DNA of 58,488 bases, counting the filler, from Basidioascus undulatus (taxonomy: Eukaryota), in NCBI GenBank assembly GCA_000826855.1. It is 4 parts of 4 records of this genome, joined end to end, with 100 filler letters (N's around TTAATTAATTAA, not from the genome) between each part and the next. Parts side by side here need not be neighbours in the genome. Positions count along the whole stretch, not along the records: positions 14,657 to 29,211 come from JTLS01000719.1; 3 more parts are not named here. The stretch is one strand, 5' to 3'. Position 1 is the stretch's first letter; the number at the start of each line of letters is the position of its first letter. The notes below the pieces were generated by a model. That model was not told the origin of the DNA. It saw nothing but the letters and a program-made list of their open reading frames with translations, and ran no database searches. Positions 14,557-49,328 of the stretch are shown here, piece by piece. Position numbers and translations under genes: made by a program.

Positions 14557-14656
14557 NNNNNNNNNNNNNNNNNNNNNNNNNNNNNNNNNNNNNNNNNNNN
14601 TTAATTAATTAANNNNNNNNNNNNNNNNNNNNNNNNNNNNNNNNNNNNNNNNNNNN
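14557..14656. other. artificial contig linker N44-TTAATTAATTAA-N44
   Basis: Exactly 100 nt, with a six-frame stop cassette in the centre. Confidence 0.99.
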
Positions 14657-22329: not shown

Positions 22330-25300
22330 TTAATTGGACAGCGCCTCAATGAACGCACGGCCGAGCGCGCGACCGAGCGGCGGTGGGACGGCGTTGCCGA
22401 CCTGGGCGTAGAGCTGGCGGCCAGGATGCATCCCACGTTTAGCGTGCAGCACTGAAGACAAATAATAATTAATGAGTGCGCGCACCTTCTTGACATCCGA
22501 GTCAGGGCGATCGTCGGCGGTGAGGAAGACGAAGTGGTCCGGGAAGCCCTGGATGCGGGCGGCTTCCCGGAGCGTAATCGTCCGCTAGAAAAACAGTCGT
22601 CAGCTGCTGGTGGTGGATGACACAGACTCAAGCCGAGGAAGACGCACATGTTGCTGAAAAGCAGGAGCTCATGCCACGTTCAAGCCGTCTTGGAAAGGGA
22701 AAGAGGAGAAAGAAGGAACACGCACATTTGGATGCAGCCAGGTTGTCCGCTGCCCAGTCGGGTTGACCTGCGTGGTCATGATTCGCGAGAAGTCGTGCAT
22801 CGACAGACGACCGAACGAGCCTGTAAAGTTGACATCTCAAGGTCAGCTGGTGCATCGGGTAAAGGGCGTGCTTCCAAATCTTTTTGGAAATTGATCCCTT
22901 GCGCCAGCTCGGGAGACAAGGCTGTCGAGTAGAAACAGTATCAGTGTACCATGTCAGGGGCACATGAAAAGCGACGGAGCCATGAGAGCAAGCCACGCAC
23001 CGCAATGGTCAATCGAGCCACTTTTCGCTCCCTTCGCGTACGCTGGCTCTAGCGGTACGGAACAGATTCTGTAAATGGTCTTCAGCGTAAACAGTTCGAA
23101 AAGAGACAGCTTCAAAAGAAAAAAATGTACAGTTCAACAATCCGGTTCGAGTACTGCCCAGTCAGTTGCTGCGTCAGTTTTCCGCCGTGAGCTCGCGCTT
23201 GCTCCTGGAAACTCGTCCGTGGATCATGCGGGTAGTCGACCGGCTTTACGAAGCCAGTTGAGCTGGAGACGGTGAGCTGCTTGAGGAACTCCGCGCGTTG
23301 CTCGCGGTCCAGCGCCTGCTCGTGCGTCTGCGGGCGAAGGACATGCGGATTGTCCCTGAAAATACGAACTCAGCAAACTAGAAGCAAACTTTAAAAAGCG
23401 ACAAAACGCACCAGTCAAACCCTCGGATGTCGCCAATTGCCATCCCGACCGTGACGGCAGGGTGTGGCGCATAGCTCGTCTGCGCGACGCGGAACTTTCG
23501 GCCCATCGCGAGCTTGATGGTCGCCCGATGACTTGGCTCGAATGCGTGCGTCTTACGAGGCAGGTGCGGGAGCTTGAGGCCGCGCTTCGCCGCCCAGACG
23601 ATGAGGCGATGGCGGGACTGCGGGACGCCGTAGTCCCCAGCTTGAACGATGCCCCACCGCACCTGATACCTGGATGCGGGCAAGGCAGTTAAGTCACAGT
23701 GGGAAAATGGGTGCGCCAAGGCTTACCCCATGGACGTCAGCGCACGAAGAAGAACCCGCAGAACGCCGTTGTCGCCCTCAGAGATGCCGTTCTTGGTGTC
23801 GTCCTTGACCTTGCCCAGCCGGTGCGACACGAGGCCGACGACGTTCTCTAGCAAGCCGAAGTTGGGCCGATAGCTGCGACGCAGGGATCGGTGAATGCTT
23901 TTTGCTATGCGTTCTTAACAAAGGAGCGACATACTGATCTACCCAAGACGCAAAGTTGAGCACGAGCGCGGCCTTCGGGTCTCCGATCTTCTTGAACCGG
24001 TTCAGGGACGAGAAGGCCTGGCTGCGACAGGCCCCGCAATTGTCAGTCTGTGCATCTCTGTGCGTTAATTCAAATTCATTACCATGGGGTTCTGAAAGAC
24101 GGATTGCGTTTTCAGCCAAAGTTGGAAGGATACTGAAAAGACAAACGCACCCAGCCTTGATCATGTCGACGTTGCCTTGCTCGGGTGGGGCGTGTTCGCC
24201 ATCCGTTGCGCGGCCCTCGTCACGGTCGATGGCGGTTTTGAGGATGGCATTAACGCACGTCGTATAGACGTGAGCGTCCGGAAAGTTGTGCCTGTGAGGC
24301 AATGATAAGTCAACAGTCAAGCAAGATAGGCAGGTGGAATCGCGGCTACGTACTGGAACGTGCGGGCCGCTGCCGAGTCCGACTCGACCGCCCATCTTGT
24401 CTTGACGATGCCCGCCGTGTCGAGCCCGCACGGCAGACCGCCGGCGCCGGCGCAGAGCTCGAGGCTGTTGAGCTCGCGGTCGTTGGACCGCAAAGTCGCG
24501 AGGGGCATCTCGCGCGCGTGGGGCTCGTCGTCCTGCGCTCTATGCGTCAAGCGCAAAGCGGAGTCGTCTGGCGCAATGGGCTCGAAGTCGTCTGGGGACG
24601 GTGAGCGGTCGCACCCGTCGAGGTACGACCAGGTGTTCATGATTGGCCGGCGCGCGACGGAGTCGAACCAGAACTGATCCGGCTCGGCACACCACGCGAG
24701 CATGTCGGCGAGCTCCGCGGAGTGCTTCGCGCGAAACGTGCCGGCAAGGCTGTTGACGGTGATGCGCTTCACGTGCTCTCGGCTGCAGAGGTAGATCTCG
24801 CGCTGCAACAAGTTGAGAAGGTCAAACTCGCATTGACCATCCTGCGCAGCAAAGCAAACTGCAGAAAAATGCACCTCGTCCGCCGTAATGTTCGAAAACT
24901 TCCTATTCCGCCAAACGAGGCTCGCCATCCGCCCAAATTTGCGGCCATAGACGACCGGCTTGCCGTCCGCCGGCGCCGCCCAGTTGATCTTGACGATTTG
25001 CACCAGGCCGTACAGCGGCGCGCGTGCGCCCACCGGGGCGTCTTGCAGGTAGACGAAATCGCCGACGTCGTAGTAGACGTCCAAGAGCGTGAAGCCGATG
25101 CCTCCAGCTAGCCGAGTCGGGACGTTTCGGCGCTTTTCCGCGCGCCTCCGCTGCGCGAGCGACTGGGGCGTGACGCGGACCGAGTCGTACTCATCCACGT
25201 CGATGAAGTCGCCCGTCTCCTCATCGGCGAGGAAGCTGTAATGTCGGGGATGAAAAAACATAAGCAACACAGGATGAAGGGGAGGATTAAGAAGGCCGGG

Positions 25301-29211: not shown

Positions 29212-29311
29212 NNNNNNNNNNNNNNNNNNNNNNNNNNNNNNNNNNNNNNNNNNNNTTAATTAATTAANNNNNNNNNNNNNNNNNNNNNNNNNNNNNNNNN
29301 NNNNNNNNNNN
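29212..29311. other. artificial contig linker
   Basis: N44-TTAATTAATTAA-N44. Confidence 0.99.
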
Positions 29312-43855: not shown

Positions 43856-43955
43856 NNNNNNNNNNNNNNNNNNNNNNNNNNNNNNNNNNNNNNNNNNNNT
43901 TAATTAATTAANNNNNNNNNNNNNNNNNNNNNNNNNNNNNNNNNNNNNNNNNNNN
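43856..43955. other. artificial contig linker
   Basis: N44-TTAATTAATTAA-N44. Confidence 0.99.
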
Positions 43956-44877: not shown

Positions 44878-44958
44878 CTGTTCACAACGCCGGAGCAGGT
44901 AAGCCACGGGCTCGGGGGTCCGGGGAGGGAGAATGAAGGGAGAGAAAAAGGCACGCAC

Positions 44959-46376
44959 TGTTCGGCACCTTAATGACGTGCCCGACGCCCTCCCACCCCT
45001 CCGCCGAGTAGCGCAGCCGGAGCTCGTCGCCGACGGCGAGCTTGACCTCGCCTGACTCGAGTTTGGGCATGCAGAACCAGGCGATGCGCTTCTGGTTGAG
45101 GCCGATGTCCCAGCGGACGACGATGTCGTTCTGCGTCTGAGCCTCCTTGAGCCGCTTGTCGTAGTCGGCCTCGATCTTGACCAGGGGTCCGAAGATGTTC
45201 TGGTACTGATATGCGTCTTCGTACCTGGACGGCGCATACCAAGTCAGCTGGTGAGGGATGGAGGGAAGGAGGGAAAGCCGGAGACGGAAAGGTGCGAAGG
45301 TAGGGAAGCAAGGGAGGGGAAGAGGGGGAGAGAGAAGGGGAGGGAACGCACTTGAGCAAGATTGGCTGCGGCTCGTCGTCGACGCCTGGGCGGTCGAGGT
45401 CCTCGAGCGTCGCGCGCGCGTTGTCCTTCCAAAGCTCCTCGAGGCGGTTGATCTGGTGGTACGAGATCTGGCGCGCGCGGAGCTGCTCGTGCTCGGAGGG
45501 CACCTTGACGAGCCAGGTGAGGAAGGAGCGGTCCTCGATGAGAGGGGCCCACTGTGAGGGAGCGTCAGCGAGCCGAGAGGGAGTGGGAAATGGAGAATGG
45601 AAGGCAGGAAGGAGGGGAAAGGTAGGGGAGAGGGAACGCACTTGAGAGGTGTCCCAGACTATATCGCGCGAGCCGGTCATGGCCGCGCAGGGCTGCCTGT
45701 TCCCACCAAGCCAAAGCGCCTCAATCACAGGGTGGAGAGAGAGGGAGCAAGAAAGGTGGCTGCACGCACCGACACAGCAGCACGACCACCGTATCGCTCT
45801 TGGCCGGAATGAACCCGAGCATAAACACGTTCTTGCTCCCGCAGTTGTAGCACTCGGGGGCAGTCTCGCCGAGGGGCGACTCGGGGTGGAGCTGGACCTC
45901 CTTGTGCTTTGCGCGGACGAGGTGGTTCACGATGTGCGAGCCCGAGGTGGAGCCGCGGGCGTTGCAGAACCACTTGTTGCAGATACAGCACTTGACGACG
46001 CACGCAGGGTTGTGGATTCCGCAGTAGCTGTCCGCCCATCGGTCATCCTGAATTCCCTATACAAACCCGGGGTAAAAGGGAGGGTAACCCACGCGCAAGC
46101 ATGCTCCGGCAGATCGCCCTTCAAGTCCTCGAGCACCAGGTCCTCCTCGTCGAGCCCGTGCCCGTGCTTCGCTCGCGGCTGCACGGAGAGATCCTCAAAG
46201 TTGAGCTCGAGGTTGTCGATCGCGCTCGTGCCGTCGTCGGCGTGGTGATGGTGGTCCTGGTGGTGGCGGTGGGAGGAGGGGAGTGCCTGGGAGTGGGCGG
46301 CGGTGGTGGACGTGCGGACAGACTCGCCGCCGTACGAGTAGGACGACTGCGCGTCGAGAGCGTCAAAGTCGTCCAT
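44959..46376 (-). pseudogene. UPF1: UPF1/NAM7 N-terminal portion (CH zinc domain + 1B), helicase core missing
   Basis: [100 protein letters not shown] and [12 protein letters not shown]. No Walker A (GPPGTGKT) follows. Confidence 0.93.
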
Positions 46377-46779: not shown

Positions 46780-49328
46780 ATGAAGATCACGGACAAGCTG
46801 CAACAAGCAGCCTCCTCGGGCGCACCTGCCTTTTCCCTTGAGTTGTCCGTCGCTCCATCCCTCCTTCCTCCTCCCCCCCATCTCACCCCCTCCTCTCTCC
46901 AGTTTCCCCCCAAAGACTGAACAGGCACATACCCTCCTCTCTCCTCTCCTACCCCTGGGCTCCCCTGAATCTAATCGGAGGACGATGGGGCAGGGCTTCA
47001 CCAACCTCCGCACGCGCCTGCACCGCCTCTCGCTCCTCCAGCCCACCTTTGTGAGCATCACCTGGGGCGCGGGCGGGTCGACCGAGGAGCGCACGATGGA
47101 CCTTGCCGCTGCCGCGCGCGAGCTCGGGCTCGACGTCCTCCTACACCTGACCTGCACCAACATGGAGAAGGACAAGCTCGACAGTGCGCTTAAGCGGGCC
47201 AAGGAGATGGGGATCCAGAACGTCCTAGCTCTGAGAGGTGACGCCCCCCGCGGACACGAGTACTGGATCTCCACCGATGACCGCTTCCAGCACGGGTCTG
47301 ACCTCGTGCGCTACATCCGCGAGCAGCACGGGGACTATTTCTGCATCGGTGTTGCGGGTGCGTCTTTCCCTCTCTTCCCCAACAATTCCACAAAGCTGAA
47401 TATTTTTGGGGACAGGCTACCCCGAAGGCCACGCCGACTCGTCCGACAAGTCGGCCGACGTTGCCCACCTCAAGATTAAGATCGACGCCGGCGCGGACTT
47501 TGTCATCACCCAGCTCTTCTACGACTGCGACGCGTACCTGCGTTGGCTACGCGAGTGTCGGAAGGCTGGTGGGTCCTCCATGTTCTCTTGAGAGGAGGGG
47601 GCCTGGAACTGATGGGACGGAGAGGCAGGCATCAACGTCCCCATCATCCCCGGCATCATGCCCATCCAGAACGTCTCCTCCCTCCGGCGCATGACCAACC
47701 TCTGCGGCGCGACGCTCCCGCACGTCATCGCCGAGCACCTGGAGCCCATCAAGGTCCATCTCTCCCCCCCTCCCTCGCTCCCCCTCCCACTCACCCGCTC
47801 TCAAACAGCATGACGACGCGACCGTCAAAGACTACGGGATCTCGCTTTCGACCTCCATGATCACGACGCTCATGCGCACGACGCAGTCCGACGCCGAGAC
47901 GTACGGCCCGCTCGCCGTGCGCGCCGCACACTTTTGCACGCTCAACCTTGAAAAGAGCGTGCGCCGGATTCTGGAGAACCTGGGATGGCAGGGCGGGCTG
48001 GACAGCGCGAGTCTGGAGGAGAGCGGGCTGCTGCAGGCGGAGCGGGAGCGGGACGAGGAGCGGCGGAAGAACGAGATTGCGCGGTTGGGGAACCGGCTCG
48101 TCGCTCAGGTATGCTCCTTCCACCTGCTTCCCTTCTTTCCTCATCTGATCGTCAATGGACGGGGGCAGAACAACTCTGCCTACACCACGCCCACCTCCGC
48201 CCCGCCCCCCCTGACAATCTCCGCGCACGAGGCCGCCCTGCGCGCGCAGCACTCGTTCGTCGCGCACCCCCCCTCCGAAGCGTCCGGCCTCCCACCCTCA
48301 AGCAAGACCTCCGCGGGGGGGAACTCCCTCTGGGACGAGTTCCCGAACGGGCGGTACGGGGACGTGCGGTCCCCCGCGTACGGCGAGCTGGACGGGTGGG
48401 GCACGGGGCTGAAGATCACCCCGCAACAAGCGCTCGCGCAGTGGGGCACGCCCGTCGACACGCACGACCTCACGCACATCTTCCTCGCCTACCTCGCCGG
48501 GCGCATCCCCTCCCTGCCCTGGTTCGAGGACCCCCTCCACGCAGAGTCGGAAACTATCATGCCGTACCTTCGCGCGTTCGCGCGGCGCGGGTGGTGGACC
48601 GTCGGCTCGCAGCCCGCCGTCGACGGCGCGCGCTCGGACGACCCCGTGTTTGGGTTTGGGCCGCGCGGGGGCTGGATCTTCCAGAAGGCGTTTGTGGAGT
48701 TCTGGGTGCCCAGGGGGGAGCTGGAGGAGCTCGTCCGGCGGCTGGAGAAGTGGGAAGGGGGCGGGTACTATGCGGGGAATAGGAAGGTGCGTGCAGCGGG
48801 CTTGGCTGCTTTCCCCGCTGGAGCGGGAGGACTGATGGAACGGCTACAGGGAGAGTTCAGGACGAACTTTTTGCCTGATGCGATCAACGCCGTCACGTGG
48901 GGTATCTTCCCCGGGAAGGAGATCGTCCAGTCTACGATCATCGAGGAGGTGTCCTTCAACGCGTGGAAAGTCCGTTCCCCGTTTCCCCCTCTTCCTCTCC
49001 CTTTCCCTCACCCGCTGATCTGGTAATGTCATGTTGTATTACCGGGACGGGATGGGATGCGGAAACAGGAGGAGGCCTTCGACATCTGGCGCGAGTGGGC
49101 GATGCTCTACCCTGCGCAGAGCGCGAGCCGCAAGCTCCTGGACAGCATCGGCGAGGAGTACTGGCTCGTCAGCGTTGTCTATCACGATTGTCCGCCTTCC
49201 CCTTCCTCTCCTGCGCGTTCTCGTCTCGGATCTGATCCGGCGCAGCAGACAAAGATGCCGACGGCCTCTGGCGCTTCTTGCTCGGGGACGAGGCGACGAA
49301 CGGCGCCGACGTCGACGGGAAGCAATGA
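46780..49328 (+). CDS. MET12: methylenetetrahydrofolate reductase (Met12-type)
   Basis: SLEFFPPKTEQ/GFTNL, ITWGAGGST, HLTCTNM, LALRGDAP, IGVAGYPEGH, ITQLFYD, PGIMPIQ; regulatory domain WDEFPNGRYGDVRSPAYGE, QKAFVEF, NAVTWGIFP. It ends DGKQ-TGA. Confidence 0.93.

Follow-up and report, generated by a model that had tools for sequence, protein, structure and literature searches.

A candidate 9-nucleotide exon encoding the catalytic Pro-Cys of a DNMT1-type methyltransferase gene of Basidioascus undulatus

The DNA analysed here (the window) is a stretch of 58,488 nucleotides from Basidioascus undulatus, assembly GCA_000826855.1; it is eukaryotic and GC-rich (59% GC). Its minus strand carries a gene which, from its sequence, is a DNMT1-type maintenance methyltransferase gene of an intron-rich basidiomycete. 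The catalytic Pro-Cys of this enzyme is absent from the continuous reading frames and is recovered when nine bases at 24091-24083 are read as an exon of their own. These nine bases are very probably a genuine internal coding exon. A second exon of the same kind, 6 nt long, is predicted further downstream in the same gene; coding exons of up to 15 nt are classed here as microexons.

Motif IV and the 9-nt exon

The cysteine of motif IV is the catalytic nucleophile of C5 methyltransferases. No continuous frame of the minus strand contains Pro-Cys-Gln (PCQ) between 22300 and 28000, which bears out what an earlier note on this DNA had said of the open reading frames (ORFs). As read on the minus strand, the sequence is ...ATG ATC AAG GCT GG, intron, AACCCCATG, intron, C CAG GCC TTC TCG. 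The upstream exon (24291-24151, 141 nt) ends with ...V-D-M-I-K-A-G(G) in phase 2 (GG), and this end aligns with the ...VDFIYGG that stands just before PPCQ in the homologues. It is followed by an intron of 59 nt at 24150-24092 (GTGCGT...CTGAA...TTTCAG, GC 0.44). The 9-nt exon would complete the Gly codon and encode Thr, Pro and the first two bases of the catalytic Cys. The next intron, of 61 nt at 24082-24022, has the form GTAATG...CTGAC...CGCAG, with CTGAC 21 nt from the 3' end and a GC content of 0.475. The downstream exon (24021-23935, 87 nt), which also aligns with the homologues, begins with the C completing Cys and continues Q-A-F-S-S-L-N-R.... The same arrangement of 59-nt intron, 9-nt exon and 61-nt intron had been proposed in the earlier note, and its coordinates and sequence were matched base for base. 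The splice product given there, A-G-T-P-C-Q-A-F-S, was reproduced by the computed isoform without both introns, MIKAGTPCQAFS..., i.e. M-I-K-A-G-T-P-C-Q-A-F-S.

All one- and two-intron models between fixed flanks were enumerated, using GT or GC donors, AG acceptors and introns of at least 40 nt. Twenty models were in frame and stop-free across the interval, and Pro-Cys-Gln was present in one of them, the 9-nt exon model. Motif IV of the C5 methyltransferase family (PF00145) can be encoded at the family position solely in this way. A cysteine is also obtained from the donor GTTTGT at 24146 joined to an acceptor at 24018, a model that is in frame and stop-free and reads M-I-K-A-G-C-A-F-S, with Cys directly after Gly. 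Neither the Pro nor the Gln of the motif is present in this product, which falls three residues short of the spacing in the family; the donor is weak and the acceptor lies within the conserved Q-A-F-S codons. It is considered highly improbable.

The product of the 9-nt exon model is in register with the homologues without a gap (V-D-F-I-Y-G-G-P-P-C-Q-S-F-S in the family, V-D-M-I-K-A-G-T-P-C-Q-A-F-S in the model). Among the 22 homologues longer than 500 residues, the aligned site reads GPPCQ.FS in 14, FPCPGY in two and PSCQGFS in one, and in the remaining five this region is garbled or truncated. The E of ENV stands 39 residues, by count, from the first Pro of Pro-Pro-Cys in P0002 (Plicaturopsis crispa KII89181.1), P0003, P0005 and P0007. 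In the model it is likewise 39 residues from the Pro of Thr-Pro-Cys, one residue shorter in register. In tblastn alignments a gap of 40 residues, equal to the 120 nt of both introns, falls exactly between PPC and Q.

The chance of finding such an exon was estimated from mononucleotide shuffles of the 129-nt interval. A strict test required a 9-nt exon of the form N NNN CCN TG, preceded by AG and followed by G[TC], with both flanking introns at least 40 nt long; it was passed by 213 of 200,000 shuffles (0.11%). In a permissive test, with any exon of 6-30 nt ending in Pro-Cys, the count was 259 of 50,000 (0.5%).

The flanking sequences were compared with other introns of the gene. Six introns are placed by alignment with homologues (25619-25549, 25305-25236, 24353-24292, 23934-23874, 23726-23670 and 23411-23356), and these together with the four flanking the two microexons form a set of ten. 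The 59 and 61 nt on either side of the 9-nt exon lie inside the 56-72 nt range of the set. The GC content of the ten introns is 0.375-0.56, against 0.59-0.65 in the seven exons of more than 9 nt. Four of the ten, the intron at 24150-24092 and three others, have the donor GTGCGT.

That the 9-nt exon is real and also essentially constitutive is judged likely. It is most likely constitutive because enzyme activity depends on it and all the other catalytic motifs are intact. Several points weigh against this reading. Among the ten introns, only the one after the exon has the donor GTAATG, which has no G at +5, and the branch-like site of the intron at 24150-24092 is CTGAA, not CTRAY. Thr precedes Pro-Cys in the model, where most homologues have Pro. 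Constitutive inclusion is itself an assumption. Scans of metagenomes for DNA of an orthologue were also negative: 55 stretches matched in a scan with a single protein and none was a relative, and all 80 loci kept from a scan with profile A2 (seven Agaricomycete DNMT1 proteins, P0002 being the first sequence) read as contiguous bacterial-type methylase genes, with no DNMT1 orthologue among them. When P0002 was compared with the 80 loci by tblastn, two had more than two matched segments or a match before residue 700, namely L024 (two tandem genes) and L056 (contiguous). These loci are biased for the question of the exon, because they were found through an uninterrupted GGPPCQ pattern.

A second microexon and other introns of the gene

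Between ...W-L-H-P-N and R-T-I-T-L-R-E the gene has an apparent intron of 141 nt, twice the usual length. It can be split into an intron of 72 nt at 22725-22654 (GTGCGT...TTTTCAG), a 6-nt exon CAACAT at 22653-22648 encoding Gln-His, and an intron of 63 nt at 22647-22585 (GTGCGT...CTGAC...TTCTAG). The predicted product reads H-P-N-Q-H-R before T-I-T-L-R-E, the start of motif IX. HPxQxR is found in 12 of 14 homologues examined, and P0021 has H-P-T-Q-H-R. A 6-nt exon encoding Q[KQRH] arose by chance in 70 of 200,000 shuffles. Models with a single intron across this interval either lose two residues or require the weak donor GTTCCT.

Two independent tiny exons in one gene, each restoring a conserved motif at the exact spacing, make coincidence very unlikely. 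They would also show that the spliceosome of Basidioascus undulatus handles exons as small as these. The exon model of the earlier note has strong support from the sequence and from the homologues, being the sole source of PCQ among the 20 models, with the family spacing, intron-like flanks and a second microexon of the same build.

The alternative is that there is no microexon at motif IV. The 129-nt interval would then be a single intron (24150-24022) or would be retained, the product would be a dead DNMT1-like protein or the gene would be decaying, and the match of AACCCCATG would be coincidental. A single intron GTGCGT...CGCAG is in frame (MIKAGQAFS), and automatic predictors would prefer such a model. 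Decay in this lineage is conceivable, as Wallemia sebi, of the genus with the nearest match to another gene of the window (see below), is reported to be without DNMTs (PMC5073141, excerpt). The interval of 129 nt is nevertheless about twice as long as the ten introns of the set, although one intron of 165-180 nt may exist. The shuffles put coincidence at 0.1-0.5%, the aligned exons have neither stop nor frameshift, all other motifs are kept, and a second, independent microexon restores another conserved motif. The absence of a microexon is therefore regarded as improbable.

A further intron of 72 nt is hidden inside the last ORF at 22485-22414, just before motif X (GNAVPPPL). It is AT-rich, in frame and stop-free (GTGCGC...GCCAG), and its removal gives the spacing of the homologues before GNAVPPPL. 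A stop-free intron in this position implies that an open frame says little in this gene. One apparent intron of 165-180 nt was noted in a variable region, with the donor GTGCGT at 23000 and an acceptor AG at either 22836 or 22821 on the minus strand. No third microexon was found inside 23000-22821, where two-intron GT-AG models with introns of 45-110 nt numbered zero.

Predicted splice products and the question of regulation

In fungi, introns of some 60 nt are defined across the intron and not across the exon, so that exon length is not limiting in principle. The introns of 59 and 61 nt would each follow this usual pattern for their size, and they would probably be removed one after the other, with 9 nt between the acceptor and the next donor. 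The mature mRNA would read ...D-M-I-K-A-G-T-P-C-Q-A-F-S..., motif IV with its Cys nucleophile, and the product would be a normal DNMT1 carrying the catalytic cysteine. From the genomic sequence we infer that splicing takes this course, that the introns leave in succession and that the exon is constitutive.

Other isoforms were computed as well. Skipping of the 9-nt exon gives MIKAGQAFS..., in frame and with exactly T-P-C lost, and keeping both introns gives 43 added or changed codons that are in frame and stop-free but lose PCQ; both outcomes had been foreseen in the earlier note. Keeping intron 1 alone causes a frameshift leading to a stop, and keeping intron 2 alone gives ...TPW and stops directly after.

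These products raise the alternative that the exon is real but regulated, with skipping or double retention yielding a full-length, catalytically dead DNMT1 as a switch of DNA methylation. The loss of exactly T-P-C in frame and the open frame on double retention are in its favour, and the donor GTAATG, the least consensus-like of the ten, could make inclusion condition-sensitive and less than complete. The closest precedent is the 9-nt mini-exon of potato invertase, which, by the title of Bournay 1996, is reportedly skipped under cold induction. Condition-dependent use of a tiny exon with functional residues is also on record for the 20-nt exon of Trichoderma Xlr2 (PMC11121469, excerpt). In-frame skipping, however, holds for every exon with a length divisible by three and is hence no evidence of regulation, and a stop-free frame of 43 codons is expected in about 13% of random sequences by our own arithmetic. 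Either intron kept alone leads to a premature stop, as with ordinary introns, and the 6-nt exon of the same gene preserves the frame equally, with no reason there to invoke a switch. The usual form of alternative splicing in fungi is intron retention rather than exon skipping. A regulated exon is accordingly thought unlikely.

The more specific proposal, that condition-dependent skipping tunes DNA methylation and that the protein without Thr-Pro-Cys could bind hemimethylated DNA and partners as a dominant-negative form or a reader, is given a shade less credence. If a switch were to exist, the enzyme could have another, independent point of control in the 6-nt exon, with its Gln-His of HPxQxR. 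Regulated inclusion would then be a novel mode of DNA methylation control, turning 5-methylcytosine (5mC) on or off after transcription.

The gene, its relatives and comparable systems

The methyltransferase gene extends at least from 27132 to 22330 on the minus strand, with the stop codon at 22330-22332. Its ORF pieces follow profile A2 in colinear order (positions 23-1178, from 27132 to 22339), and tblastn with 11 homologues agrees with this layout. In the N-terminal part the colinear matches to the profile cover positions 23-98 (E 7e-07), 145-234 (E 3e-09), 345-484 and 483-741. The Pfam domain DNA_methylase was matched by three ORF pieces, with E 2.2e-07 (profile 134-184), 6.4e-09 (276-299) and 0.0017 (2-39); the piece with motif I scores 18.3 bits, under the cut-off of 22 bits, because it holds one exon only. 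One ORF piece matches BAH (E 2e-05, 24.9 bits, under the cut-off of 30.8), and no Pfam match to RFD was found in the ORF pieces of the window. The DNMT1 subfamily is characterised by RFD, a pair of BAH domains and the methyltransferase domain. The best full-length phmmer match, P0002, has the architecture RFD, BAH and DNA_methylase in Pfam. PDB matches of exon J, one of the catalytic exons, were DNMT1 chains in 26 of 26 cases.

Motif I (L-E-L-C-A-G-A-G-G-L) lies in the exon at 25235-24354 and aligns with LELFAGAGGL of the homologues. Motifs VI (LLENV), VIII (GVPQSRHR), IX (REAARIQGFPD) and X (GNAVPPPL) are also present. Exons aligned to homologues showed neither a stop nor a frameshift, and the catalytic motifs other than motif IV are intact.

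With the largest exon as query, phmmer found 55 matches, all weak, among 1.84 billion representative proteins; none was below E 1e-10, and the best had E 1.7e-09 and 47% identity over about 90 residues. Named matches include fungal DNMT1-type proteins of Plicaturopsis, Tulosesus/Ephemerocybe, Lactarius and Amylostereum, proteins of a chytrid and a glomeromycete, and a Dim-2-like protein of a Leotiomycete. Neither a close orthologue nor a transcript-derived protein of Basidioascus undulatus was found by this search or by homologue searches with the 339-residue exon ORF and the 253-residue read-through ORF, in protein collections that also cover assembled sequencing runs.

Two ORF-style fragments of relatives, P0038 and P0054, leave the family sequence right after ...I-[LY]-G-G, a hint that they read into intron sequence lying at the position of the 9-nt exon or no more than one base away. 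The public models of Lactarius quietus (P0029) and Amylostereum chailletii (P0032) are garbled and truncated, respectively, exactly at motif IV. Together, these four breakdowns indicate that an intron or tiny exon at motif IV may be more widespread. In the fragments P0001, P0013 and P0018, '...Y-V...' follows right after the T-Y-Q or T-Y-A that ends the motif I exon, and the window likewise has T-F-Q-Y-V leading into the GTACGT intron at 24353, which suggests a conserved position and phase of this intron.

A gene for methylenetetrahydrofolate reductase (MTHFR) with several short introns is located elsewhere in the window at 46970-49283 on the plus strand. Over 47695-49026 its nearest matches are from Wallemia mellicola and W. 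ichthyophaga (57% and 56% identity), and the next-best, mostly from Tremellomycetes, are at about 43%. No microexon was evident in this gene by tblastn. Its closeness to Wallemia implies a basidiomycete from a thinly sampled lineage close to Wallemiomycotina. The reported DNMT loss in Wallemia sebi fits the absence of a close DNMT1 relative in the searches, and the lineage of Basidioascus undulatus retains a DNMT1 that its nearest sequenced relatives may have lost. An ORF piece at 44882-46000 on the minus strand resembles, by eye in translation, the N-terminal region of the RNA helicase Upf1/NAM7. Pairs of N-runs (2 x 44, split by 12 bases) occur at 14557-14656, 29212-29311 and 43856-43955, about 14.65 kb apart; they look like an artefact of masking or assembly and not like biology.

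The 9-nt exon is missed by an ORF-level reading, and probably by automatic prediction too, because it is tiny. Annotation of either kind would call the enzyme catalytically dead or truncate the gene, and surveys of DNA methylation capacity among fungi rely on calls of this kind. The gene would provide a clean fungal example of microexons, of 9 and 6 nt, each with residues of a conserved motif. Annotation and surveys of fungal methylation capacity stand to gain from this; to a specialist it is not surprising. There is good documentation of very small exons that code for conserved motifs and escape annotation (PMC8831610, PMC11121469, excerpts), and microexons in fungi are described as little characterised (PMC11121469, excerpt). 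Among the papers listed, judged by titles, none describes a microexon in the catalytic loop of a DNMT.

Nearest to this case is the 9-nt mini-exon of plant acid invertases, coding for D-P-N of the active-site motif NDPNG (PMC4579127, excerpt). Both exons are 9 nt long and encode three residues in the middle of a catalytic motif, both can be skipped in frame, and the invertase exon too is often missed by annotation (PMC4579127, PMC8831610, excerpts), being among the most commonly misannotated plant microexons (PMC8831610, excerpt). They differ in that the invertase exon belongs to a plant glycoside hydrolase, is conserved across plants and has cDNA support, whereas the DNMT1 exon is fungal, lies in a DNA methyltransferase gene and is predicted from genomic sequence. 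The microexon of Trichoderma virens Xlr2 is likewise fungal, and the residues it supplies, two Cys of Zn2Cys6, are essential to a domain; the JGI gene model lacks it, and its condition-dependent use was shown by RNA-seq (PMC11121469, excerpt). At 20 nt it does not preserve the frame, and it belongs to an ascomycete transcription factor (PMC11121469, excerpt). Agaricomycete DNMT1 proteins, such as that of Plicaturopsis crispa, appear to resemble the predicted product of the window in architecture, with a colinear match over profile positions 23-1178, all methyltransferase motifs in common and tblastn identities of 26-38% per segment. The predicted Agaricomycete proteins have G-G-P-P-C-Q at the catalytic loop, where the model of the window has A-G-T-P-C-Q.

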